A stretch of 18,928 nucleotides of DNA from an uncultured Clostridia bacterium (GTDB taxonomy: Bacteria > Bacillota > Clostridia > Lachnospirales > Lachnospiraceae): contig CANADC010000019.1 in assembly GCA_947347075.1 (NCBI GenBank), forward strand, positions 1 through 18,928, written 5' to 3'. The position numbers and the translations under genes are program-made. Positions 1 to 11,127 of the stretch are shown here, in pieces. Position 1 is the first letter of the stretch; each line of letters starts with the position of its first letter. The notes beneath the pieces are model-generated. The model saw nothing but the letters and a program-made list of their open reading frames with translations. It was not told where the DNA came from and ran no database searches.

Positions 1-5
1 AGCAT

Positions 6-27
6 ATAGTCCTTGGAGAGGGACTAT
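6..27. promoter_or_regulatory. Perfect inverted repeat ATAGTCC-N8-GGACTAT directly upstream of the recombinase gene; candidate operator or recombinase binding site
   Basis: The palindrome is read directly in the sequence (6-12 pairs with 21-27). It lies where a -35 element would sit relative to TATAAT at 42-47. Serine recombinase genes commonly carry their res/att or autoregulatory site immediately 5' of the gene. Confidence 0.3.
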
Positions 28-41
28 AAACACTACTACTT

Positions 42-55
42 TATAATACGAGGAG
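42..55 (+). promoter_or_regulatory. Putative -10 (TATAAT 42-47) and RBS (GAGGAG 50-55) of the recombinase gene
   Basis: Consensus -10 hexamer and a Shine-Dalgarno 11 nt before the ATG at 67. No clean -35 is present, because the palindrome occupies that position. Confidence 0.3.
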
Positions 56-66
56 TGTAAAGAATA

Positions 67-1248
67 ATGAGTATATTTAGTAGAAATACAAAGGAAAGAC
101 AAGAATCTTTCAGTATGAGAAAGTTCTTTTTTGAGTGCAGATTTGATGATATCTTGAATACAAATAGGCTTTTAAGAGTTGCCAGATATGCCAGAGAATC
201 TACAAATCATCCAGATCAGTTGCAGGCGTTACATAATCAAGCGGAACGTTTAGATTCTTTGATCAAAGAGCATATTTATTTTACAATTGAAGAAAGGCAT
301 CGATATACAGAAAGGGGTATCTCAGGAAGAAGTATAGAAGATCGAGCAGCATTTCAGCTTATGTTGGAAGCAGCCAGACGAAGGGAGTTTGATTTAATTA
401 TTGTTCAAGATATTTGCAGATTTGCTAGGAATTTACGTGAATTATTAAATACAATTGAAGAGTTAAAAGAATATGATATTGGAGTTTTAATACTGGATGG
501 AAAGTATTGGACATTTAATATGGACGAAACAGATATTATTCGTTTGTCAGTTGATGGAGGATTGGCTCAGAGCGAGTCAATGAGGACGGCGAAAAGGGTT
601 AATAATGGTGTTCTTTCTTATAGAAAGAAAGGGCAATTAGTGGTATCAGGGTTATTTGGTTATATTTATGTAAAAGCTGTGGATAGGAAGAATAATACTT
701 TTCGGATTGATCCAGTTAATGGATTGACTGTTAAGACAATTTTTGATTTATATACCGATCCTGATTTAACGAAGCGTATGGGAACTCAAAAAATTGCAAA
801 TTATTTGATTGAACATAAGATGCTGACAGCAAGAGGAGATTTGGGTTGGAGTGCATCTAAGGTAAACCGAGTTCTTAGAAATGAAAAATATATGGGGTAT
901 CTGTTATATGGAAAGTTTAAAGTAGAAGATACCATGACAAAAAAGAAGATTGCAACCAAAATTAAACCAATCAGGGAGGATGTTTATGACAAAGAAGGAA
1001 ATTTGGTAGAACAGTGTAACTTAGTGAAAGGAAATTGGGAGTCAATTGTATCAGAGGAACAGTGGTGGCTTGCTTATCAGATCCGAAATGAAAAAGCAGT
1101 AGATTATATTTATTCAGTAAAAGGTTGTATGGTGAATGGTTTAAGAGAGTCTGTTGATATTATTGCGAATAAAAGTTTCTGTCAATGTGGATATTCGTTA
1201 AGCCCTCAGTATGTTCATACTGCAATATTGGAGGGCTATTACTGTTAA
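67..1248 (+). CDS. Large serine recombinase (resolvase/invertase catalytic domain plus recombinase domain), apparently 3'-truncated within the zinc-ribbon region. It has an unusual ~37-aa N-terminal extension.
   Basis: The catalytic-serine motif VARYARESTNHPDQ matches YxRVSTxxQ. DICRFARN matches the D-R-x-S-R-N region. The GISGRS...DIGVLILDG...VNNGVLSYRKKG block is typical of large serine recombinases. The product is 393 aa against a usual 450-550. It ends CQCGYSLSPQYVHTAILEGYYC, just as a CxxC zinc ribbon begins. The stop codon TAA is provided by the 36-bp repeat at 1243-1278. Confidence 0.85.
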   Translation: MSIFSRNTKERQESFSMRKFFFECRFDDILNTNRLLRVARYARESTNHPDQLQALHNQAERLDSLIKEHIYFTIEERHRYTERGISGRSIEDRAAFQLMLEAARRREFDLIIVQDICRFARNLRELLNTIEELKEYDIGVLILDGKYWTFNMDETDIIRLSVDGGLAQSESMRTAKRVNNGVLSYRKKGQLVVSGLFGYIYVKAVDRKNNTFRIDPVNGLTVKTIFDLYTDPDLTKRMGTQKIANYLIEHKMLTARGDLGWSASKVNRVLRNEKYMGYLLYGKFKVEDTMTKKKIATKIKPIREDVYDKEGNLVEQCNLVKGNWESIVSEEQWWLAYQIRNEKAVDYIYSVKGCMVNGLRESVDIIANKSFCQCGYSLSPQYVHTAILEGYYC

Positions 1249-1278
1249 GATTGCTGTAAAGTAAGAGAGAAAAAGAGG
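1243..1278. repeat. 36-bp direct repeat copy R1 (TGTTAAGATTGCTGTAAAGTAAGAGAGAAAAAGAGG) overlapping the last two codons and stop of the recombinase ORF
   Basis: 34 of 36 positions are identical to 2171-2206. Both copies begin TGT TAA and terminate the ORF they abut. Confidence 0.85.
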
Positions 1279-1305
1279 CTTGAAGAAATGATCAAGCCTT
1301 TTTTA
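1276..1305 (+). terminator. Rho-independent terminator after the recombinase gene
   Basis: Stem AGGCTTGA (1276-1283) pairs with TCAAGCCT (1292-1299) and is followed by a T6 run. Confidence 0.6.
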
Positions 1306-1373
1306 GTTTAGACGATCAGAATAAATTGCATTTTGGGTTATTTTTTGCTATAATTATATTAAAATCGTAGAGT

Positions 1374-1590
1374 TATTTAGTTTCTAAAAGGATATATAAA
1401 AAGTATTTGTTTTCATATAAGATTTTGTTGTTTTCTGTTGTAGACGCTACGATTATAAAGATAGTAATGTGTATATAAAATATGAAGGCTTATGTTTCAT
1501 GAGATAAATGGATATAGGAAAGTGAAACGTTACTTGTCTTATACTGGGAGATATTTATTACAATTTCGGTATATGGAAATGCGGAGGAAC
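1374..1590 (+). repeat. Leader repeat copy L1 (~217 bp; promoter plus upstream noncoding region of cassette 1), ~90% identical to 2223-2431
   Basis: Aligning the two regions by eye gives near-identity from TATTTAGTTT through AATTTCGGTATATGGAAAT. Each copy contains a -10-like TTATTACAAT or TTATTATAAT with an upstream TTGTCT or TTGCCT. Copy 1 has an extra ~90 bp (1591-1680) between the repeat and the RBS. Confidence 0.85.
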
Positions 1591-1685
1591 ATATTGTAAA
1601 TATTTTAATCTAAAGAGAAATAAGTTTTGAGATGATAAATTTAAGAATCATTGAAAAAAATTTGATAAGAAAGGGGGTTTATATA

Positions 1686-1925
1686 ATGGAAGAGCGATTG
1701 GATTGGAAACAAATAGTAGAAAAGTACCCGAACCAGTGGGTTGGTTTAACAGAAGTTGAGTATGAAGAAGATAATGATGCAACAATTAAAACTGCTATTG
1801 TGAAATATACAAATAAATCGAAAGATGAATTAACTTGGATGCAGTTTGAAACTTCTGGTGCATTGATAGGCATTTATACAACACCTGATAATGTATTTCA
1901 GTTAGGAGTACTGGGGGGTTTTTAA
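1686..1925 (+). CDS. Cassette gene A1: small (79 aa) protein of unknown function, translationally coupled to B1
   Basis: RBS AAGGGGG sits 8 nt before ATG 1686. The stop overlaps the B1 start (TAATG). It is ~50% identical to the 2451-2690 product, with shared EKYP-QWVGL, TIK/ESAIV-YT and YTTPD motifs. The supplied ORF starts at 1632, but the RBS supports 1686. Confidence 0.6.
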   Translation: MEERLDWKQIVEKYPNQWVGLTEVEYEEDNDATIKTAIVKYTNKSKDELTWMQFETSGALIGIYTTPDNVFQLGVLGGF

Positions 1926-2176
1926 TGAAACAGTTTACATTACATTTAGTTAAAGAAAAGTCAAGACCTATTGTAGAGCTAAAAAATTGGAATAATATTT
2001 ATGCATTGTTGGATACAGGGGCAATCTATCCTATTTGGACAGCAGATGAAAGGATTCTGATTCGATTTGGTGCAACATTGAAAGAGAAGGGTGTTTCGTT
2101 TGGAGGGTTTGGTGGTAAAACAAGTGGAAATAAAAAATCAACGATAGATTTATTCCTGAAGGGTTGTTCTTGTTAA
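1925..2176 (+). CDS. Cassette gene B1: retropepsin-like aspartic protease, 3'-truncated copy (83 aa)
   Basis: ALLDTGAIYPIW contains the hydrophobic-hydrophobic-D-T-G-A active-site signature of clan AA retropepsins. VSFGGFGGK resembles the Gly-rich flap (HIV PR has IGGIGGF). The homologous copy B2 continues ~70 aa further. B1 is cut short where repeat R2 supplies TGT TAA. Confidence 0.55.
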   Translation: MKQFTLHLVKEKSRPIVELKNWNNIYALLDTGAIYPIWTADERILIRFGATLKEKGVSFGGFGGKTSGNKKSTIDLFLKGCSC

Positions 2177-2206
2177 GATTGCTGTAAAATAAGAGAGAAA
2201 AAAAGG
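2171..2206. repeat. 36-bp direct repeat copy R2, overlapping the stop of B1
   Basis: TGTTAAGATTGCTGTAAAATAAGAGAGAAAAAAAGG matches 1243-1278 at 34 of 36 positions. Confidence 0.85.
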
Positions 2207-2222
2207 TTTGAAATTGCAAAGG

Positions 2223-2431
2223 TATTTAGTTTCCAATATATAAAAAGTATTTGTTTTCATATAAGATTTTGCTGTTTTCTGTTGTAGATGCTACGATTAT
2301 AAAGATAGTAATGTGTCTATAAAATATAAAGGCTTATGTTTCATTAGATGAATGGATATAGGAAAGTGAAATGTTACTTGCCTTATATTAGGAGATATTT
2401 ATTATAATTTCGGTATATGGAAATATAGAGG
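2223..2431 (+). repeat. Leader repeat copy L2 (promoter and leader of cassette 2)
   Basis: Near-identical to 1374-1590. It contains TTGCCT-N18/19-TATAAT and runs directly into RBS AAGGGAGGG. Confidence 0.85.
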
Positions 2432-2450
2432 AATAAAGGGAGGGTTTATA

Positions 2451-2690
2451 GTGTTAGAAGAAAGATTAACGTGGGAACAGATACAAGAAAAATATCCAGA
2501 TCAATGGGTAGGATTATTAGATGTAAAATATGAAGAAAATGATGGTATAACCATAGAATCAGCTATTGTAGAATATACGGGATTGTCGATGGATGCTTTA
2601 ACAAAGATGATGTTGCATGGGAAATGTGTAGCAAGATATACTACACCCGATCATGCATTTTCATTAGGAATGATAGAGGTGTTATCATGA
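2451..2690 (+). CDS. Cassette gene A2: paralogue of A1 (79 aa, GTG start)
   Basis: RBS AAGGGAGGG sits 8 nt upstream of GTG 2451. The product MLEERLTWEQIQEKYPDQWVGL aligns with A1 along its full length. The stop overlaps the B2 start (ATGA). Confidence 0.6.
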   Translation: MLEERLTWEQIQEKYPDQWVGLLDVKYEENDGITIESAIVEYTGLSMDALTKMMLHGKCVARYTTPDHAFSLGMIEVLS

Positions 2691-3146
2691 AACAGATAAC
2701 ATTAAATTTAGATAAAAAACAGCAAAGACCAATGGTATTATTACAATCGGGATTAACTGCTTTACTTGATACAGGTGCTTTTATGCCAGTATGGACAGGC
2801 GGAAAGGAATTGTTAGAAGAAGAATTTGGTGGAGAGTCACAAAATCGTAAGGTTTCATTTTCAGGGTTTGGTGGGAAATTATGGGGGGGATTTATATTCT
2901 GTAACATTGTCAGTTGGTGATTTGATATTTAATCATATGTCAATCATTGTAAGTAATAATTTGGGAATAACACCGTACCAGTTTATTATGAGTGCTACTA
3001 TGTTTGATCATTTAATTTATGAAGTTGATATGAAATGGCATAAACTTAATATAAAAATTCCAGATGATGAGAGTTTTGTTAGAAATTTAAGGTTAGTAGA
3101 TAAGAATGGAAAAATGTATATTTTATGTCATTCTGAACAAAAGTAG
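2687..3146 (+). pseudogene. Cassette gene B2: full-length retropepsin-like aspartic protease (~153 aa), interrupted by a +1 frameshift at the G7 run 2883-2889
   Basis: Frame 2687 reads MKQITL...ALLDTGAFMPVW...VSFSGFGGKLWGG, then stops. Frame 2826 continues DLYSVTLSVGDLIFNHMSIIVSNNLGITPYQF...ILCHSEQK to 3146. Removing one G from the G7 tract joins the two frames into one ORF. That ORF aligns with B1 as far as B1 extends (STIDLFL against SVGDLIF). Confidence 0.6.
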
Positions 3147-3169
3147 AATAGAAATGGAAAAACAAGTAT

Positions 3170-3214
3170 AGGTTATGAGCAAGTAGCAAAGCGGATTGCG
3201 AATATCCGATTTGA
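3170..3214. repeat. 45-bp direct repeat copy D1 (AGGTTATGAGCAAGTAGCAAAGCGGATTGCGAATATCCGATTTGA)
   Basis: 43 of 45 positions are identical to 5298-5342. It contains the small internal palindrome CGGAT-TGCGAAT-ATCCG. Confidence 0.8.
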
Positions 3215-3242
3215 TTTTGATAAATTGTGAATGTCTTCTTTT

Positions 3243-3272
3243 TTGATATACTAAAAAAAGAGGTAGTATGAT
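3243..3272 (+). promoter_or_regulatory. Sigma-A-type promoter for the transglutaminase-like gene
   Basis: TTGATA (3243-3248), an 18-nt spacer, then TATGAT (3267-3272). Confidence 0.45.
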
Positions 3273-3372
3273 ACAAAATGGATAGAAGATATTATTTAAA
3301 GATTGGCAAAAGGTGAACCATTACCAGAGAAAAATAAAGATTATTCTCGCAATGGCTTCTATGGAGGAAAAA

Positions 3373-3990
3373 ATGAATGTAGTTTTATATTCAAATAAAG
3401 TTGACGAATATTTAAAACAGGATAATGTGGTTGATTATGATAATGAAGATATTATAGAATTGGCTGATAAATTATTTAGGAAAGCAAGTAATGAACTTGA
3501 TTTCATTAAAATAACTTATGAATTTGTCAGAGATAATATTTTACATTCAGCAGATATAAATGAAGATGTCATTACATGTGCTGCTTCGGAAGTGCTAAAA
3601 GCCGGTCATGGAATTTGCTTTGCTAAATCTCACTTATTGGCAGCATTATTACGATGTAAATCTGTTCCGGCAGGTTTTTGTTATCAAAAATTAATTTTAG
3701 ATGATGAAAAAGCTCCTGTCTTAATTTATCATGGATTAAACGGCGTATATATAAAAGACTGTAAAAAATGGATAAGGCTTGATGCGAGAGGAAATAAAAT
3801 TGGTGTAAATGCACAGTTTTCAATAGAAAAGGAACAGCTTGCATTTCCCATTCGTTCTCAAATGGGAGAATCGGATAGTTTTATAGTATATCCTGATCCT
3901 GATATAAAGATATTAGAAAAATTAAGAGAAAGTAAGACGAGAACAGTACTTTGGGATAATCTGCCTACTGAACTTGGATATAACAAATAG
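3373..3990 (+). CDS. Transglutaminase-like superfamily cysteine protease or transglutaminase-like enzyme
   Basis: GHGICFAKSHLLAALLRCKSVPAGFCYQ matches the TGase-core G-x-C-x-x-F-A...LLR-x-x-x-I-P-A-R motif and includes the catalytic Cys. The downstream His (IYHG..VYI) and Asp (WIRLDARG) complete the Cys-His-Asp triad. RBS GGAGGA precedes ATG 3373. The supplied ORF begins at 3313, but 3373 has the RBS. Confidence 0.7.
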   Translation: MNVVLYSNKVDEYLKQDNVVDYDNEDIIELADKLFRKASNELDFIKITYEFVRDNILHSADINEDVITCAASEVLKAGHGICFAKSHLLAALLRCKSVPAGFCYQKLILDDEKAPVLIYHGLNGVYIKDCKKWIRLDARGNKIGVNAQFSIEKEQLAFPIRSQMGESDSFIVYPDPDIKILEKLRESKTRTVLWDNLPTELGYNK

Positions 3991-4416
3991 TATCTAATGC
4001 CAGTTTATTTAAACCAATATTGTCACAATCATAATGGAATAATAACATCGTATGAGAGCATATAGAAAACGAGTCTATATGTTCTATTTTTATGTAAAGG
4101 AATAGATTTATAAGCAAAGACAGTAGGCAGGACAAAGAAAAAGAATAGGATAGGTTACAATAAAAATGATAATTTTTTTAAGGTTATATAGTAAAAAAGG
4201 ATATATTAATAAAAAATATAATATTTTTTTATTAGAAATAGTTTTATATGAAAAATTGATTGGAAAGATTAGGGAAAGGGGATGATTCAATTATTTTTTA
4301 AGGGATTTAAAATAAAATTGTAATAAATATTTCCTTCTTTAGAAAATTGTGATACAATAACTCTATGGGAGGATTTTGAGATTGTTTTAGGATATGCGTA
4401 AGAAAGGAGAAGAATT

Positions 4417-5130
4417 ATGGAACAAATGAAAATTACACCAAAAGACAGCAGACTTCGTGCTCTGAGTATAGTGGTTTCTGAATATGAAATTGATTTTGAT
4501 CCAGAATTGCTAGAACCGGTAACGGCTCTGCTTCGTAAGATTTTAGGGGCAGAAAAGGAAGATGAAAAGTATGGGAAATATGCTTATCTGATTGAAACGG
4601 TAAGGGAATTTGACGGGGAGACTTTTTATCATTTAATCGGTGTGGGGTTACTTGCTGGGGTTACAGCGAAGATTATGGATTTGAGTGATACTGAGTTTGA
4701 GAAAATTGTAATAGCTGGTGTACTCCATGATATTGGAAAAGTGATGGTAGGAACTGATATTTTAAGAAAACCATGTGGCGTTTCCGAAAAAGAGATGATT
4801 CAGATTCGTAAGCATCCAATCTATGCATACCGACTTCTTTCTGAGGTTGAGAAGGACTCCGATATTTTATTTGGTGTGTTGATGCATCATGAACGGTTCT
4901 GCGGCGGGGGATATCCGCTGAATTATAATGGGGAGCAGATTCCGTTGTGTGCTCGTATATTAGCAGTTTGTGATACGTTTGATGCATTGACTTCCAGCCG
5001 TCCTTATCATACAAAGAGCAGTGTGCAGGATTCACTTTATTATATTGTGCGTTCGACTCGATATGATCCTTATGTCAGTTCGGCGTTTAAGACAGCTTTC
5101 CAAGGAGGAAATTGTGCTTGGTGGAAGTAA
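4417..5130 (+). CDS. HD-GYP domain phosphodiesterase (c-di-GMP or cyclic-dinucleotide hydrolase family)
   Basis: GVLHDIGK supplies the HD motif. MHHERFCGGGYP matches HHExxDGSGYP, the GYP motif. A conserved ILAVCDTFDALTSSRPY block is present. RBS AAAGGAGA precedes ATG 4417. Confidence 0.85.
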   Translation: MEQMKITPKDSRLRALSIVVSEYEIDFDPELLEPVTALLRKILGAEKEDEKYGKYAYLIETVREFDGETFYHLIGVGLLAGVTAKIMDLSDTEFEKIVIAGVLHDIGKVMVGTDILRKPCGVSEKEMIQIRKHPIYAYRLLSEVEKDSDILFGVLMHHERFCGGGYPLNYNGEQIPLCARILAVCDTFDALTSSRPYHTKSSVQDSLYYIVRSTRYDPYVSSAFKTAFQGGNCAWWK

Positions 5131-5169
5131 AAGAGGGAAAGAGGAAAAATAAAAAGAGATAAACAAAAG

Positions 5170-5205
5170 GTTCTGAAAGTAATTTATTTTCAGAACTTTT
5201 TATTT
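5170..5205 (+). terminator. Rho-independent terminator after the HD-GYP gene
   Basis: GTTCTGAAA (5170-5178) pairs with TTTCAGAAC (5188-5196), followed by TTTTTATTTT. Confidence 0.65.
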
Positions 5206-5227
5206 TGTTTGAATTCGATCTTGGTTT

Positions 5228-5302
5228 AACCTCATCAAGGAAGTCCCCCGCTTCTAAGCCGCCAAGGCGAAAGCGGTGGGTTGGGACTTCCTTGATGAGG
5301 TT
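5228..5302. other. 75-nt structured element: perfect 20-bp inverted repeat (AACCTCATCAAGGAAGTCCC / GGGACTTCCTTGATGAGGTT) enclosing a 35-nt loop with a nested CCGCTT...AAGCGG hairpin
   Basis: The two arms (5228-5247 and 5283-5302) are perfectly complementary. No T-run follows, so it is not a simple terminator. It abuts repeat D2. Confidence 0.6.
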
Positions 5303-5342
5303 ATGAGCAAGCAGCGAAGCGGATTGCGAATATCCGATTTGA
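5298..5342. repeat. 45-bp direct repeat copy D2
   Basis: AGGTTATGAGCAAGCAGCGAAGCGGATTGCGAATATCCGATTTGA differs from D1 (3170-3214) at 2 positions. Confidence 0.8.
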
Positions 5343-5605
5343 CATAGAGTTTAGTTTAAGGTTAGGTTTATGAAAGGGATTTTATAAGCGGGAAAAATGG
5401 GGGATATTCTTATGGGGATTTTAAAGAGAACCTGTATTTTTCTGTAGAAAAAGGGAGAAGAAAATCACAATTCGAACAAATGGTCGAAAAAATTATTAAA
5501 ATATCGTAAATTCACTGGAAAAAAAGAAAAGGTTGTGGTAGAGTAAGTTAGAAATGGCTTTCGGATAATAGAGAGGAATCAGAAAAAAGAAAGGAAGATG
5601 GAAAC

Positions 5606-7525
5606 GTGGGAGCGAAGGATACTTACAATGCACAGAATATAACCGTGTTGGAAGGGTTAGAAGCGGTAAGAAAACGACCGGGAATGTATATTGGGAGTGT
5701 ATCGGTAAAGGGATTAAATCATCTGATTTATGAGATTGTAGATAATGCAGTGGATGAACATTTGAACGGATATTGTGATTCGATCTGGGTGACATTGGAG
5801 AAAGACGGTTCTGCTACAATTAAGGACAATGGACGTGGGGTTCCTGTAGATATGCATCCGAAAGGGCTTCCAGCGGCACGAATTGTCTATACGACACTTC
5901 ATGCAGGGGGAAAATTTGGAGACGGGGCTTATAAGACCAGCGGAGGACTGCATGGAGTGGGGTCTTCTGTGGTAAATGCTCTGTCGGCTTATCTGGATGT
6001 ACAGGTTTTTAAGGATGGCGGAATTCACCATGACCGCTATGAAAGAGGAGTTCCAGTTGTAGAATTAGTGGACGGGCTGCTGCCGATTATCGGAAAGACC
6101 AGACAGACGGGAACAGTGGTTAATTTTTTGCCGGATGAGGAGATTTTTGATAAGATTTATTTTAAAGCGGATGCAGTGAAAAGCAGGCTGCATGAAACCG
6201 CTTATTTGAATCCAGAATTGACGATTTATTTTGAAAACAGACGTCCTGGAGAGGAAGAAAAGGCGGTGTTTCATGAAAAAGAGGGAATTCGGGGGTTTGT
6301 GCGTGCCTTAAATGATGGGAAAGAGACGATACATGATGTAATTGCTTTTCATGGGGAGTCGGAACAGATTGTGGTGGACGTAGCATTTCAGTATATCAAT
6401 GATTTTCAGGAAAATATTTTGGGGTTCTGCAATAATATTTATACACAAGAAGGGGGAACCCATCTAACCGGGTTTAAGACCAGCTTTACAACGGTAATTA
6501 ATAATTATGCACGGGAACTGGGAATTTTAAAGGAGAGAGATGCAAATTTTACCGGGGCAGATGTTCGGAACGGTATGACAGCAGTGGTCTCTATCAAACA
6601 TCCCGATCCACGGTTTGAAGGGCAGACAAAGACCAAGTTGGATAATCCAGATGCAACAAAGGCAGCTTCGCAGATTACCAGTGAAGAACTGCAGCTATTT
6701 TTTGATAAAAATCTAGAAATTTTAAAAAATGTAATTGGATGTGCCGAGAAATCGGCAAAGATTCGAAAAGCGGAAGAGAAGGCAAAGACCAATATGCTGG
6801 TAAAACCGAAGTTTTCATTTGATTCCAATGGGAAATTGGCAAATTGTGAAAGCCGGGATGCTTCCAAGTGTGAGATTTTTATTGTGGAAGGGGATTCAGC
6901 AGGCGGTTCGGCAAAGATGGCAAGAAACCGGCTTTATCAGGCAATTCTGCCGATTCGGGGAAAGATATTGAATGTAGAAAAGGCAACGATGGATAAAGTA
7001 CTTGCCAATGCTGAGATTCAAACTATGATATTGGCATTTGGCTGTGGGTTTTCTGAGGGATATGGAAATGATTTTGATATTTCGAAACTGCGTTATCATA
7101 AGATTATTATTATGGCAGATGCCGATGTGGATGGGGCACATATCAGTACCCTGCTTTTAACCCTGTTTTATCGGTTTATGCCGGAGTTAATCTATGAGGG
7201 ACATGTCTATCTTGCTATGCCGCCGCTTTATAAAGCAGTACCTCAAAGGGGACCGGAAGAGTATCTCTATGATGATAAGGCATTGGAGAAGTATCGAAAA
7301 AGTCATAAAAATTTTATTTTGCAGCGATATAAAGGGTTAGGAGAGATGGATGCGGCACAGCTTTGGGAGACTACTTTAAATCCAGAGACTCGAATGTTAC
7401 GGCGGGTAGAGATTGAGGACGGAAAGATGGCATCGGATGTAACTTCTATTTTAATGGGAAGTGATGTGCCGCTTCGAAGAGAATTTATCTACAGACATGC
7501 CAAAGAAGCGGAAATCGATGCATAA
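5606..7525 (+). CDS. parE: Type IIA DNA topoisomerase ATPase (B) subunit of the GyrB/ParE family; probably topoisomerase IV ParE, given the partner A subunit
   Basis: It aligns collinearly with Bacillus subtilis GyrB and ParE: VLEGLEAVRKRPGMYIGS, LHAGGKFG, GLHGVG, EGDSAGGSAK, PLRGKILNVEKA, MTDADVDGAHI and QRYKGLGEM. GTG start with RBS AAAGGAAG. 639 aa. Confidence 0.6.
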   Translation: MGAKDTYNAQNITVLEGLEAVRKRPGMYIGSVSVKGLNHLIYEIVDNAVDEHLNGYCDSIWVTLEKDGSATIKDNGRGVPVDMHPKGLPAARIVYTTLHAGGKFGDGAYKTSGGLHGVGSSVVNALSAYLDVQVFKDGGIHHDRYERGVPVVELVDGLLPIIGKTRQTGTVVNFLPDEEIFDKIYFKADAVKSRLHETAYLNPELTIYFENRRPGEEEKAVFHEKEGIRGFVRALNDGKETIHDVIAFHGESEQIVVDVAFQYINDFQENILGFCNNIYTQEGGTHLTGFKTSFTTVINNYARELGILKERDANFTGADVRNGMTAVVSIKHPDPRFEGQTKTKLDNPDATKAASQITSEELQLFFDKNLEILKNVIGCAEKSAKIRKAEEKAKTNMLVKPKFSFDSNGKLANCESRDASKCEIFIVEGDSAGGSAKMARNRLYQAILPIRGKILNVEKATMDKVLANAEIQTMILAFGCGFSEGYGNDFDISKLRYHKIIIMADADVDGAHISTLLLTLFYRFMPELIYEGHVYLAMPPLYKAVPQRGPEEYLYDDKALEKYRKSHKNFILQRYKGLGEMDAAQLWETTLNPETRMLRRVEIEDGKMASDVTSILMGSDVPLRREFIYRHAKEAEIDA

Positions 7526-7590
7526 AAAAGGACGAAATCCGAGGATAAAAGGATTGATAGGATAGAAACAAAATGGAGAGGGAATGTGTG

Positions 7591-9834
7591 ATGGCAGAAC
7601 AAATTATTAGCACAGAGTTTGCAGATGTAATGCAGAAAAGTTTTGTAGATTATGCAATGAGTGTAATTACAGCTCGTGCCGTGCCGGATGTGCGGGACGG
7701 GTTAAAGCCGGTGCAGCGCCGGGTTTTATATGCAATGCATGAGTTGGGATTAAACTTTGATAAGCCGCATCGAAAATCGGCAAGAATTGTTGGTGATACC
7801 ATGGGAAAATATCATCCCCATGGGGACAGCTCGATTTATGAGGCACTGGTTGTAATGGAGCAGGACTTTAAAAAGGGAATGGCTTTGGTGGACGGGCATG
7901 GAAATTTTGGATCGATTGAGGGAGATTCTGCAGCCGCTATGCGTTATACCGAGGCACGATTAAAAAAATTTACGCAGGAGGTCTATCTTAAGGATTTAGA
8001 TAAAAATGTAATTGATTTTCTGCCCAATTTCGATGAAACGGAAAAGGAACCAGAAGTGCTTCCAGTTCGGGTCCCCAATATCTTGGTAAACGGAGCGGAC
8101 GGAATTGCAGTTGGAATGGTGACTTCGATTCCGCCTCACAATTTAGGAGAAGTGATTTCTGCAGTAGAGGCATTTATAGAAAATGACGAAATTAGTACAG
8201 AAGAATTGATGGAGTATATAAAAGGACCGGATTTTCCGACCGGAGGGATTGTAATTAATCAAAAGGAGTTAGCAGAAATCTATGAGACTGGCAGCGGAAA
8301 GATTAAAGTTCGCGGGAAATTGGAGTTTGAGCCGGCAAAAAAGAAAAATGAACGGGATAAATTAGTAATTACAGAGATTCCTTATACTTTAATTGGAAGT
8401 AATTTAGGAAAACTTCTTGCCGATATTGCGGGATTGGTAGAAGCGAAAAAAACAACAGATATTGTGGATATTTTAAATCAGAGTTCCAAAGAGGGAATTC
8501 GGATTGTATTGGAATTAAAAAAGAATACCGATATAGAAAAACTTTCGAACCTGCTCTATAAAAAGACAAAATTAGAGGATACGTTTGGAGTAAATATGCT
8601 GACAATTGTAAATGGAAAGCCGGAAAAATTGGGGCTGCGTGAAATTCTTCGTCATCATTTGGATTTTCAGATTGAATTGGCTTCCAGAAAATATCAGTAT
8701 TTATTAAAAAAAGAGCTGGAAAAAAAGGAGATAAAAGAAGGGCTGATACGTGCCTATGATATTTTAGATTTGCTGATTGAGATTATACGGGGAAGCCGTT
8801 CGGTAAAAGAGGTTAAGAAATGCTTGGTGTATGGAGATACCAGTAAAATTCAGTTTAAAAAACAGGCTTCTGAAAAGGCGGCTGCAAAGTTAAATTTTAC
8901 GGAAGCACAGGCTTCTGCTATTTTAGAACTCCGGCTGCAAAAACTGGTGGGATTGGAGATTCAGGCACTGGAGAAAGAGTATAAAGAGATTGTAAAAAAT
9001 ATTGCACAGTATACGGATATTTTGGAGAATCATACTTCTATGCTGAGAGTAATTCGAAAAGATTTGGAAGTGATTCGAAAAGAGTTTTCATTGGAACGAA
9101 AGACAGCCATTTTAAATGCACAGGCAGCGGTTTACGAGGAAGCACCGATTGCCGAACAGGAGATTGTCTTTACGATGGATCGGTTTGGTTATGCGAAAAC
9201 CATGGATCTTTCGACTTATGAGAGAAATGCAGAGACGGTGGAACATGAGAATAAGTATGTCTTTCGCTGTATGAATACCGATAAGATTTGTATTTTTACC
9301 GATACGGGCAGTATGCATCAGATTAAGATGTTAGATATTCCTTTTGGAAAATTAAGAGATAAGGGACAGCCGATTGATAATTTGGGAAATTATTCTAGTG
9401 CAGGAGAGGCGATTGTTGGAATTTTTACATTTTCTTCTATTCGAGAGAGGAAACTTTTTTTTGCTACGAAAAGCGGAATGGTAAAATTGGTAAACGCTTC
9501 TGAATTTGATGTAAATCGAAAGACTATTTTGGCAACGAAATTAGAAGAGCAGGACAGTGTAGTTTGTGTTTGCCCGGTTTTAGAGGAGGATAGAGAAGTG
9601 CTGCTTTATTCTCATGGAGGGTATTTTTTACGGTTTGCTTTGGAAGAGGTGCCGGAAAAGAGAAAAAGTGCATTGGGAGTACATGGGATGAAGATGGCAG
9701 AAAAGGATTATTTGGAGTGGGTGTCGCTGTTAAAAGGCGGACAGGAGTTTTTTGATTTTCGAAGTAAGGGGATAGCAGTGGCAAGAGTAAAAGAGGCAAA
9801 GCGGGATGAAAAAGGAACGAAGCTGCGGATATAG
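7591..9834 (+). CDS. parC: Type IIA DNA topoisomerase A subunit of the GyrA/ParC family; no GyrA box, so probably topoisomerase IV ParC
   Basis: The N-terminal breakage-reunion domain aligns with GyrA and ParC: AMSVITARAVPDVRDGLKPVQRRVLYAM, GKYHPHGD, DGHGNFGS, AAAMRYTEARL. The QRRGGKG GyrA box is absent where it would sit, and the sequence there reads TYERNAETVEHENKYV. The product is ~747 aa with a short C-terminal domain. The start is placed at ATG 7591 (MAEQIIS), with RBS GGAGAGGG. The supplied ORF starts at 7573. Confidence 0.6.
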   Translation: MAEQIISTEFADVMQKSFVDYAMSVITARAVPDVRDGLKPVQRRVLYAMHELGLNFDKPHRKSARIVGDTMGKYHPHGDSSIYEALVVMEQDFKKGMALVDGHGNFGSIEGDSAAAMRYTEARLKKFTQEVYLKDLDKNVIDFLPNFDETEKEPEVLPVRVPNILVNGADGIAVGMVTSIPPHNLGEVISAVEAFIENDEISTEELMEYIKGPDFPTGGIVINQKELAEIYETGSGKIKVRGKLEFEPAKKKNERDKLVITEIPYTLIGSNLGKLLADIAGLVEAKKTTDIVDILNQSSKEGIRIVLELKKNTDIEKLSNLLYKKTKLEDTFGVNMLTIVNGKPEKLGLREILRHHLDFQIELASRKYQYLLKKELEKKEIKEGLIRAYDILDLLIEIIRGSRSVKEVKKCLVYGDTSKIQFKKQASEKAAAKLNFTEAQASAILELRLQKLVGLEIQALEKEYKEIVKNIAQYTDILENHTSMLRVIRKDLEVIRKEFSLERKTAILNAQAAVYEEAPIAEQEIVFTMDRFGYAKTMDLSTYERNAETVEHENKYVFRCMNTDKICIFTDTGSMHQIKMLDIPFGKLRDKGQPIDNLGNYSSAGEAIVGIFTFSSIRERKLFFATKSGMVKLVNASEFDVNRKTILATKLEEQDSVVCVCPVLEEDREVLLYSHGGYFLRFALEEVPEKRKSALGVHGMKMAEKDYLEWVSLLKGGQEFFDFRSKGIAVARVKEAKRDEKGTKLRI

Positions 9835-9910
9835 CGGAATGGGTTATGATAGTATTGTACTGTAGTGAAAAAGGAATAAAGAGGCAAATAGAGAGAAGAG
9901 GGTTAAGAAG

Positions 9911-10843
9911 ATGAAAAGGATATGGTTAGGAATTTTCTGCGGGCTTTTGATTTTGGGGCTGGCTGGATGCGGAAAGGAGTTAGAGAAAGCAAATAAAGGA
10001 GGGGTGGATTCGACAGAGAGAATAGAAGAGGGGTATCCTGTTACGGTACAGGGAGCAGGGGGAGAAGAGCTTGTTTTGGAGGCGGAACCTTTGCGGGTGG
10101 TTTCGGTAGGACCTAATATAACGGAATTGCTTTATTCGCTTGGAGTGCAGGAGAAGTTGGTGGGGCGGACGGATTATTGTGATTATCCGAAAGAGGTTCT
10201 TTCCGTGGATACAATTGGTACGCTTTATACACCAGATGTAGAGAAGATCATTAGTTTGGAGCCGGATTTGGTGATTGCTTCAACTCATTTTTTGGATGAG
10301 ACAAAGGAGAAGTTGGAAGCGGTCGGGATTTCGGTGCTGGTTTTGCATGAGGAGAATGAGTTAGAAGGGGTCTATCGTTTGATTGATACGCTGGGGGCGG
10401 TTTTTAATCAAAAGGGACGTGCTTTGGAAATTGTGGAGGATATGCAGAAGCGGATTGCTGCTGTGGAAGAAAAGGTAGCAGAAGTGGAGCCGGTTTCGGT
10501 TTATTATGTGGTTGGATATGGAGATGGCGGGGATTATACGGCGGGGGGAGATACGTTTATTCATGAAATTTTGACTGCAGCGGGTGGACGGAATGTGGCG
10601 GAAGAAGTGAGTGGGTGGAGTTATTCTTTGGAAAAGCTGCTGGAGGCGGATCCAGATGTGATTCTTGTTTCGGAGGCGGATTATGAGGGATTTGTTGAGA
10701 CGGAGCCTTATGCAGGGCTTCGGGCGGTGAAGGAAGGGAGGGTTTATACGATAGATGAAAATTTGTTGAATCGGCAGTGTGATCGAAATGCGGATGCGGT
10801 TGAGCAGATTGCTCGGATGCTTTATCCGGGGGTGTTTTCATGA
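9911..10843 (+). CDS. ABC-transporter substrate-binding lipoprotein of the BtuF/FecB class (cobalamin or iron-siderophore type)
   Basis: The lipoprotein signal peptide has an LAGC lipobox. LRVVSVGPNITELLYSLGV, VGRTDYCDYP and LEPDLVIAS match the Peripla_BP_2 fold. No permease or ATPase gene is adjacent in this window. Confidence 0.75.
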   Translation: MKRIWLGIFCGLLILGLAGCGKELEKANKGGVDSTERIEEGYPVTVQGAGGEELVLEAEPLRVVSVGPNITELLYSLGVQEKLVGRTDYCDYPKEVLSVDTIGTLYTPDVEKIISLEPDLVIASTHFLDETKEKLEAVGISVLVLHEENELEGVYRLIDTLGAVFNQKGRALEIVEDMQKRIAAVEEKVAEVEPVSVYYVVGYGDGGDYTAGGDTFIHEILTAAGGRNVAEEVSGWSYSLEKLLEADPDVILVSEADYEGFVETEPYAGLRAVKEGRVYTIDENLLNRQCDRNADAVEQIARMLYPGVFS

Positions 10844-10880
10844 TTTGCTTGGAGTAAAAAATAGAAGGGGACGCTGGAGT

Positions 10881-11127
10881 GGGGGAGTGATTCCGTTCTG
10901 TTGTTCCGCTCTCTGGAAAGGTAGAAGCTCTAAGACTTCTGAATTTCGGTGTATCCAGCCGGACGGATCGGGGTGCAATTCGCCCGTACAGCGGGCTAAA
11001 CACACCCCTTTTTTTGCCATTCGGGAATGGCAAAAAATCCTAGTGGATCGACAGAAGTCTAAGGGCTTCTAACTTTCCTCCGAAGTCACAGCAGAACGGA
11101 ATCGCTCCCCCGCTCCGGCTGTTTTTT
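10881..11127. repeat. Long imperfect inverted-repeat element (~231 bp plus T7) between the binding-protein gene and the next promoter; MITE-like or a large structured RNA
   Basis: GGGGGAGTGATTCCGTTCTGTTGT (10881-10904) pairs with ACAGCAGAACGGAATCGCTCCCCC (11088-11111). GGAAAGGTAGAAGCTCTAAGACTTCTG (10915-10941) pairs with CAGAAGTCTAAGGGCTTCTAACTTTCC (11052-11078). Together these give about 50 bp of two-segment complementarity enclosing ~110 nt that contain two terminator hairpins. A T7 run follows at 11121-11127. Confidence 0.55.
10970..11038. terminator. Bidirectional terminator pair
   Basis: GGGGTG...CACCCC (10970-11008) followed by T7 (11009-11015) terminates + strand transcription. GCCATTC-GGG-GAATGGC (11016-11032) is flanked by a T-run upstream and an A-run downstream, so it can also terminate - strand transcription. 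Confidence 0.6.

Follow-up and report, generated by a model that had tools for sequence, protein, structure and literature searches.

The stretch of DNA analysed here, called the window throughout, is the whole 18,928 nucleotides of contig CANADC010000019.1 from an uncultured Clostridia bacterium of the Lachnospiraceae. Near its 5′ end the window holds two tandem copies, both partly decayed, of a unit consisting of a leader, a gene for a small protein, A, and a gene for a second protein, B. B has the fold of a retropepsin, is homologous to these aspartic proteases and conserves their catalytic motif; it is obligately paired with A, the pair is mobile, and its decay is asymmetric. We give an even chance to the proposal that A–B is a horizontally mobile toxin–antitoxin-like or defence (abortive-infection) module, in which B would be the effector protease and A its neutraliser, probably acting through its C-terminal tail.

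Two copies of the A–B unit

The two copies of the pair are arranged as follows, all on the forward strand.

1686..1925 (+): A1, intact gene for the 79-residue partner protein (A-family hidden Markov model (HMM), E=1.3e-36)
1925..2130 (+): B1, 5′ fragment of a retropepsin-like protease gene, a pseudogene (matches B HMM positions 1-68 only; blastn junction)
2451..2690 (+): A2, intact gene for the 79-residue partner protein, GTG start (A-family membership; match to PDC-M08A, E=7.7e-5)
2687..3146 (+): B2, retropepsin-like aspartic protease gene, frameshifted (repaired product 100% identical to the related protein P0001)
2883..2889 (+): G7 homopolymer behind the frameshift in B2 (alignment with related contig L017, which has G6)

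B1 starts at the ATG at 1925 and contains YALLDTGA, with D30 encoded at 2012-2014 (DTGA at 2012-2023), and GGFGG as residues 61-65. B2 starts at the ATG at 2687 and contains TALLDTGA, with D28 encoded at 2768-2770 (DTGA at 2768-2779), and SGFGG, of which GFGG forms residues 60-63 (2864-2875). The initial annotation, made from the letters alone, had seen a retropepsin active-site motif about 30 residues from the N-terminus of both copies, and ALLDTGA does lie there in each. It had also described a glycine-rich flap, which both copies possess, though the exact string GGFGG is found only in B1. The expected monomer of around 150 residues is borne out by B2, which has 152 once its frame is repaired, but not by B1, which is only a 68-codon 5′ fragment. 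The 79-residue partner overlapping B by 1-4 nucleotides was correctly read in both copies: A1 and B1 overlap by 1 nucleotide (TAATG) and A2 and B2 by 4 (ATGA).

The similarity of B1 to B is limited to codons 1-68 (1925 to around 2130). Its open reading frame continues to 2176, giving 83 residues, and the last 15 codons come from copied recombinase 3′ end and leader sequence (2130-2176). Among the related contigs and loci that we compared (labelled L001 and so on, with related proteins labelled P0001 and so on), the copy of B1 in L017, a contig from the metagenome-assembled genome of a mouse-gut Lachnospiraceae (MGBC128194), has a stop at codon 3 while the copy in L003 keeps 113 codons. Because B1 is dead, A1 is in effect an orphan. 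B2 has a +1 frameshift at the G7 run, and removal of one G gives the 152-residue protein that is identical to P0001, which is intact on 8 other contigs; in L017 there are six Gs at this site and the gene is intact. As found, then, the window has two disrupted protease copies and two intact A genes. Either the frameshift stems from a sequencing error in the homopolymer, or the strain has lost both proteases and kept both A genes. Programmed frameshifting was considered and rejected, since the run arises from allele-specific W-G-D codons, is absent in homologues and is G6 in the 99%-identical contig.

B is a retropepsin-like protease by fold and homology

An AlphaFold2 model of B built from 45 homologues had a mean predicted local distance difference test score (pLDDT) of 89.2 and a predicted template modelling score (pTM) of 0.83. 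In the model a retropepsin core spans residues 1-114, with three additional strands at residues 119-149. GFGG (residues 60-63) is positioned at the tip of a β hairpin formed by residues 50-59 and 64-76, much like the flap of a retropepsin, and ILSATMF (residues 100-106) forms a strand followed by a helix, the counterpart of IIGRNLL in the protease of human immunodeficiency virus (HIV). Across the family this second motif position reads I-[L/M]-S-A-T-M-F (strand 99-102, helix 103-106), with serine in place of the usual glycine and proline in 20 of 111 sequences.

An exhaustive HMMER search for the B family gave 582 representative clusters (50% identity) at E<=1e-3, 280 of them at E<=1e-10. Conservation was assessed in an alignment of 111 full-length B sequences, namely 110 representatives and P0001. 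The most conserved columns are P15 and the catalytic motif itself: D28 (105/111), T29 (105/111), G30 (109/111) and A31 (102/111). When 94 diverse representatives were compared with Pfam, 61 matched Asp_protease_2 (best 5.2e-8), 32 gag-asp_proteas and 12 RVP. A profile of the diverse representatives found the proteases of equine infectious anaemia virus (EIAV; 2.6e-6), feline immunodeficiency virus (FIV; 7.5e-5) and HIV-1 (3e-4) amongst Protein Data Bank (PDB) sequences, with alignments that span the active site and the flap alike. A narrower profile made from 45 sequences also ranks HIV-1 protease first, by way of QRPxV...ALLDTGA.

The window sequences on their own give no such signal. Neither B1 nor the repaired B2 matched Pfam at E<=1, and a single-sequence phmmer search of the PDB with B2 returned chance matches only. 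The Pfam search of the repaired B2 that the initial annotation had suggested as a check is therefore empty for B2 itself, but positive for 61 of its 94 relatives. Since the direct scans of B2 are empty while its relatives match both Asp_protease_2 and EIAV protease, the homology is established transitively. By fold, profile and conservation of the catalytic motif, B is, as judged from sequence and model, a true retropepsin-like protease of clan AA, with its activity predicted. As no signal peptide or transmembrane segment can be read in the sequence, B would be a soluble cytosolic enzyme. Each chain has one DTGA so that B is presumably a homodimer, as are all retropepsins.

It might be argued that DTGA and GFGG are coincidental, or the fold non-catalytic, so that B is no protease; B2 matches no Pfam, NCBIfam or PHROGs model directly and a few relatives, P0178 and P0187, lack the catalytic aspartate. 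Against this, the fold, the profiles and the conservation all point to clan AA, and we regard the idea as barely credible and effectively refuted. The two ways in which the initial annotation could have failed, chance motifs and a non-pepsin fold, both fall away, as no columns in this family of 582 clusters are better conserved than the motifs and the model has the retropepsin fold with its flap hairpin.

P0178 is of some interest in its own right. This protein of 249 residues (L098, 621-1370) combines a DUF1902 domain, as in HicB-like antitoxins, with a B-like domain in which the catalytic aspartate is replaced by alanine. Here an antitoxin-like protein may have taken over a protease domain that is no longer active; only one contig, a short one, encodes P0178.

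The partner A is acidic and ends in a conserved tail predicted to be flexible

A1 has 79 residues and is read from an ATG that follows an AAGGGGG ribosome-binding site. A single-sequence search puts the A family at 76 clusters and a profile search at 1205; its members are acidic proteins of about 78 residues with a median isoelectric point (pI) of 4.5. In the model of A (pLDDT 83) residues 1-65 make up an α/β domain with the order β-α-β-β-α-β. The tail of A2 (residues 66-79) is predicted to be disordered, with a pLDDT of about 46, yet it is conserved in sequence, with the family consensus (Y/H)T(T/N)P(D/E)xx(F/L)Q(L/M)G(M/A)VG(V/Y)(F/H)G. Direct scans of A1 and A2 against Pfam, NCBIfam and PHROGs gave no meaningful match, and no family recurred when A-family members were scanned singly against Pfam. 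A resemblance to DUF5678 was considered, but none of the searches supported it and it was dropped.

Three proteins of 147-155 residues, P0272, P0273 and P0274, contain two A domains in tandem, as would be fitting for a protein that binds a protease dimer with two-fold symmetry.

A and B are obligately paired but decay unequally

The pairing was surveyed in 80 species-representative loci, from the Lachnospiraceae and relatives and from the Selenomonadaceae, collected with B as the query. In these, A and B were both intact in 75 pairs, A was accompanied by a truncated or frameshifted B in 8 cases and A was an orphan in 5. A lies immediately 5′ of B in essentially every locus. The tight coupling seen in the two window copies is nearly universal, with the ATGA overlap at 68 of the 80 scored junctions and gaps of <=15 nucleotides at the others. 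The identities of A and B covary (r=0.82). Natural fusions of A to B were also sought; the only protein with both domains, P0245, proved to be a deletion chimera, and P0178 carries DUF1902 rather than A.

The losses fall on one side. A is intact with B dead or absent in 13 modules, while the reverse is found at most once, in L060, the only near-full-length B without A, where the 5′ end of B has been replaced and the native start lost. The choice of B as bait makes the scarcity of B without A a robust finding and means that orphan A genes are undercounted. Comparison of the orphan A1 between the window and L001 gave a ratio of nonsynonymous to synonymous substitution rates (dN/dS) of about 0.2, indicating purifying selection; 4 of the 5 amino-acid changes fall in the tail and include a near-invariant glycine, the numbers in both cases being small.

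These observations bear on whether A restrains B or is cut by it. In the latter case A would be a dedicated substrate or pro-protein and B a maturation protease cutting the tail, for instance around F-Q or L-G, to release a peptide or to activate A as a regulator or effector, much as the retroviral protease acts on Gag and CalpL on CalpT. The obligate pairing and co-divergence of the two proteins would suit such a relationship, as would the tail, which is conserved, hydrophobic, flexible and similar to retropepsin cleavage sites, and the concentration of 4 of the 5 changes of the L001 orphan A1 in the tail suggests that it matters only with B present. A substrate left without its protease should, however, decay alongside it, yet 13 modules keep A, with purifying selection; that intact B is almost never seen without A is better explained by protection; and there is neither a secretion signal nor an export gene for a peptide product. 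We therefore consider processing of A by B unlikely. The tail-concentrated changes in the orphan fit a neutraliser and a substrate alike, and we favour the neutraliser because decay is asymmetric and orphan A is under purifying selection.

The pair is found in unrelated genomic contexts

The pair lies downstream of DUF1385-prmC-prfA at 14 loci, has a large serine recombinase as its neighbour at 7 and directly follows AbiH at 5-6. In some relatives it follows GmrSD_N and DUF3846, and at some loci it is next to chemotaxis (MCP) and addB genes. In L009-L011 the pair (9765-10453 in L009) is flanked by a VirB4-like ATPase and an NlpC/P60 hydrolase within an operon of an integrative and conjugative element (ICE) with a type IV secretion system (T4SS) that also has relaxase, DUF3801, coupling-protein, TrbL and PrgI genes. 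In L012-L016 (8898-14361) it is part of a conserved operon of eight genes, with a MoxR-type AAA ATPase on one side of it and DUF5682 plus VWA_CoxE on the other, a context that is also seen at the GTDB loci L020, L024 and L035. This MoxR-embedded variant is the most abundant, its A protein, P0078, being listed in 2609 blocks of the collection; the surrounding genes would form a putative conflict system, which either houses the pair or has a functional link with it. Divergent pairs standing in tandem (63-84% identity) are a recurrent finding, as are genomes with several copies. In the window no defence gene adjoins the pair. Taken across these unrelated contexts, A–B is an obligate, mobile two-gene unit.

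The association with mobile elements could mean that the pair has an accessory function for them, such as the processing of transfer, recombinase or regulatory proteins, and is neither toxin nor defence; ImmA/ImmR of ICEBs1 would be a comparison. The repetition in the window of a unit running from a recombinase 3′ end through leader to A and B, the serine recombinases near 7 loci and the place of the pair within the T4SS operon, between VirB4 and NlpC/P60, are all in keeping with this. At the prfA sites of L001 and L002, in the MoxR-VWA operon and at the MCP/addB loci, however, there are no element genes near the pair, A has no DNA-binding features and no partner gene besides A is conserved. 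An accessory function for elements would seem quite unlikely.

Another reading would be a housekeeping or operon-specific protease, serving translation termination (prmC-prfA) or the MoxR-VWA machinery, with A as an adaptor or chaperone. Of about 70 loci, 14 have prfA upstream of the pair and 11 have prmC, and the MoxR-embedded variant is extremely abundant, but such a role sits poorly with the unrelated contexts, the patchy distribution, the tandem copies and the frequent pseudogenes, both window copies of B included. Moreover the prfA-adjacent site also holds serine-recombinase remnants and so resembles an integration hotspot. We judge this very unlikely. It is because the contexts are so varied that both element-specific and housekeeping roles are the less likely.

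How the module might work

In the toxin–antitoxin-like or defence module that we propose, A would be translated first from the shared mRNA, with its translation coupled to that of B. B would be a soluble cytosolic protease, presumably a homodimer with glycine-tipped flap hairpins. The folded domain of A would dock on B, and the tail (YTTPDxxFQ[L/M]G[M/A]VG...) would occupy the substrate cleft beneath the flaps as a pseudo-substrate. Were A lost or titrated, free B would cleave cellular or invader proteins, and the release of B would lead to growth arrest or defence. Release might be triggered when the mobile element is lost, when a phage infects the cell or when A is proteolysed. We would put at somewhat short of even the chance that this is the first toxin–antitoxin or abortive-infection system with a retropepsin-type homodimer as effector, plugged by the tail of an acidic protein of new fold and freed by element loss or phage.

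Several points weigh against a module of this kind. Dimerisation, the binding of A to B, inhibition by the tail, toxicity and the trigger are what we infer. The asymmetric decay would also be expected if A had an independent function. The acidity of A (median pI 4.5) argues against a DNA-binding autorepressor, and comparison of its fold gave no match and no recognisable DNA-binding fold, which is unlike typical autoregulating type II antitoxins. With B as the tblastn query neither the INPHARED phages nor the PLSDB plasmids yielded any relatives, and nor did a scan of IMG/VR. That the most abundant variant lies inside the conserved MoxR-VWA operon could mean that it has a dedicated cellular role there, and the prfA-adjacent position common to 14 loci could reflect vertical inheritance. 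Direct scans of B2 against Pfam, NCBIfam, PHROGs and PADLOC gave no match, the Pfam and PADLOC thresholds being unmet. The link to the catalogued defence candidate PDC-M08, which is considered below, is on the B side made of weak matches by distant relatives, since neither the window B nor 45 close relatives matched PDC-M08B at E<=1, and PDC-M08 is itself a candidate by 'guilt-by-embedding'.

Why the pair matters

Bacteria have few retropepsin-like proteases, and these are little understood. Gut and rumen metagenomes are very rich in the B family, which numbers at least 582 clusters (50% identity), and the pairing of B with A brings together a soluble cytosolic retropepsin, an obligate partner whose fold has no match and genomic behaviour like that of addiction or defence systems. 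If A is an active-site inhibitor, the pair would be a new class of toxin or defence effector, would provide a natural protein inhibitor scaffold for retropepsins and a bacterial system in which the regulation of HIV-protease-like enzymes could readily be studied, and PDC-M08 would gain a domain-level interpretation as a retropepsin-like protease with its partner. On the reading of the pair as the first retropepsin-based toxin–antitoxin or abortive-infection system, the B family and PDC-M08 would together form a widespread bacterial lineage of free-standing retropepsins, relevant to the origin of the retroviral protease.

Organisation of the window around the pair

The remaining features at the 5′ end of the window, again on the forward strand, are as follows.

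67..1248 (+): serine recombinase remnant (Pfam and NCBIfam matches to the Resolvase and Recombinase domains)
1249..1685 (+): leader 1, non-coding, 5′ of A1 (promoter-like element and A1 ribosome-binding site)
2130..2450 (+): second copy of recombinase 3′ end remnant and leader (internal repeats; promoter scan)
3192..3208 (+): terminator-like hairpin with a T-run after it, 3′ of B2 (sequence scan)

The open reading frame at 67-1248 consists of the N-terminal 386 residues of a large serine recombinase fused straight to its own last few codons. It lacks the C-terminal ~260 residues and can be aligned only to residues 1-382 of the 655-residue recombinase of L053, where the full gene (1212-3179) is directly upstream of an A/B array. 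L017 is 99.25% identical to window positions 1224-11002, the similarity beginning at 1224; at the corresponding place (L017 6467-6880) it keeps instead the C-terminal ~150 residues of a large serine recombinase.

The segment 2130-2433 repeats 1224-1589, that is, the recombinase 3′ end and then the leader, with 1224-1284 similar to 2130-2212 and the leader stretch 1392-1589 recurring as 2236-2433 at 93% identity. The unit at 2130-2450, which carries the A2 ribosome-binding site, has a promoter-like TTGCCT-16-TATTAT at 2378-2405 by promoter scan and is 97.6-98% identical to L001 6741-7124, just downstream of prfA. L001 and L002 have the arrangement prfA, leader, A1′, A2, B2, and L003 has A1, a B1 of 113 residues, A2 and B2. 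The repeated unit thus comprises recombinase 3′ end, leader, A and B; it would seem to lie at an integration hotspot downstream of prfA and to have been reshaped by deletions that spared A. The recombinase remnants in the window, L017 and L053 suggest decayed integrative elements at this hotspot.

The leader is conserved only in closely related strains, within the species. It matches no known RNA, an Rfam scan of 1-5600 giving only spurious microRNA-like hairpins. A motif of 20-21 nucleotides, GGAGATATTTATTA(C/T)AATTT, at 1547-1566 and 2390-2410 overlaps the promoter-like region 5′ of A1 and A2. In inverted form (90-95% complementary) the motif recurs at 4315-4335, in front of the HD_5-domain gene (4417-5130), and it may be a shared operator or promoter element.

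A 45-nucleotide intergenic segment occurs at two sites in the window (3170-3214 and within 5218-5343) with 96% identity, and a perfect 21-bp inverted repeat (5227-5247/5283-5303) adjoins it. A related strain has this short repeat element too, in front of rpmE (L001 3160-3283). It looks like a repetitive extragenic palindromic (REP) or miniature inverted-repeat transposable element (MITE)-like element, or a terminator-associated one; Rfam sees only a generic hairpin.

After B2, at 3313-5130, are genes for a transglutaminase-core protein (225 residues) and an HD_5 phosphohydrolase (237 residues). Both are conserved in the same-species contigs L001-L003, and as they do not recur beside the pair in the loci of other species they are probably unrelated chromosomal genes.

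Comparison with known systems

Among known systems B is close to the retroviral and retroviral-like proteases of MEROPS clan AA (RVP, Asp_protease_2 and gag-asp_proteas; HIV-1, EIAV, FIV and Ddi1). B shares with them the fold, the QRPxV...ALLDTGA block, the flap hairpin with its GxGG tip, the strand and helix at ILSATMF and a single catalytic aspartate per chain. It differs in being free-standing, bacterial and cytosolic, outside any polyprotein, in having a C-terminal β extension of about 35 residues with a conserved R132, in the serine that replaces the conserved glycine of the hydrophobic-hydrophobic-Gly motif and in its dedicated partner gene.

Characterised bacterial enzymes of this type include APRc/ApRick of Rickettsia, PA0462 and relatives of Pseudomonas and Lpg0085/DUF785 of Legionella, and to our knowledge no obligate small upstream partner has been reported for any of them. 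The characterised bacterial retropepsin-like proteases are reported to be membrane-anchored, periplasmic or secreted (PMC4140852, PMC11957051), whereas B differs from the Rickettsia, Pseudomonas and Legionella enzymes in having no signal peptide or transmembrane segment.

In its genetics the pair resembles type II toxin–antitoxin systems, with small co-directional overlapping genes, the putative neutraliser first, varied contexts and copy numbers, tandem arrays and orphan 'antitoxins', and with decay of the putative toxin tolerated while loss of the putative antitoxin is not. Unlike type II antitoxins, A is acidic and has no recognisable DNA-binding domain. Proteases with cognate inhibitors are known, such as yeast proteinase A with IA3 and staphopain with staphostatin. 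The likeness of these to A–B is one of mechanism only, as they have no sequence or fold relation to A and are not mobile modules, and inhibition by A is proposed.

The initial annotation had stated that no toxin–antitoxin or defence system built on such a protease and partner was described. As far as the literature searched goes this stands, since our searches found no link between retropepsins and toxin–antitoxin or anti-phage systems, no toxin family that is an aspartic protease and nothing relevant on PDC-M08. The sole association of a retropepsin with defence in the literature searched is a protein of about 100 residues adjoining type III CRISPR loci of the Sulfolobales (PMC3973734); in the table of CRISPR-associated proteins of that paper, 'retropepsin' and 'antitoxin' occur in unrelated rows (PMC3973734). 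The statement does not hold for catalogued candidates, as components of PDC-M08 are matched clearly by A and weakly by B.

PDC-M08 is among 145 PADLOC phage-defence candidates that were proposed from their embedding in BREX, DISARM or type I restriction-modification (RM) loci (10.1101/2024.01.29.577857). In the supplement it appears as cassette CAS_00054, FAM_03167>>FAM_00414, with family numbers only and without domain annotation (10.1101/2024.01.29.577857), and the available text of Payne et al. does not describe its protease nature (10.1101/2024.01.29.577857). Two B-family representatives match a component of another candidate, PADLOC PDC-M52B (best 4.9e-5), so that PDC-M52 may also contain a retropepsin-like component.

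All 39 A-family members compared match PDC-M08A (best 9.2e-9), including A2 (7.7e-5) and A1 (1.9e-4), with coverage of only about the N-terminal 50 residues. PDC-M08B is matched by 9 of the 94 wider B representatives (PDLC04405, best 2.8e-5), collinearly over the 127-position model, and 3 match other M08B models. One of the representatives that match PDC-M08B, P0148, has an A gene upstream that overlaps its start. The order and sizes of the two components are the same as in A–B, a small first protein (86-position HMM) being followed by a second of ~127 positions. While PDC-M08 was found in RefSeq within BREX, DISARM and type I RM loci, the present family occurs in uncultured Lachnospiraceae and Selenomonadaceae of gut and rumen and in other contexts. 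By sequence comparison we read the window pair, both proteins of which are remotely homologous to the catalogued candidate PDC-M08, as a divergent branch of it, here recognised as a retropepsin and its partner.

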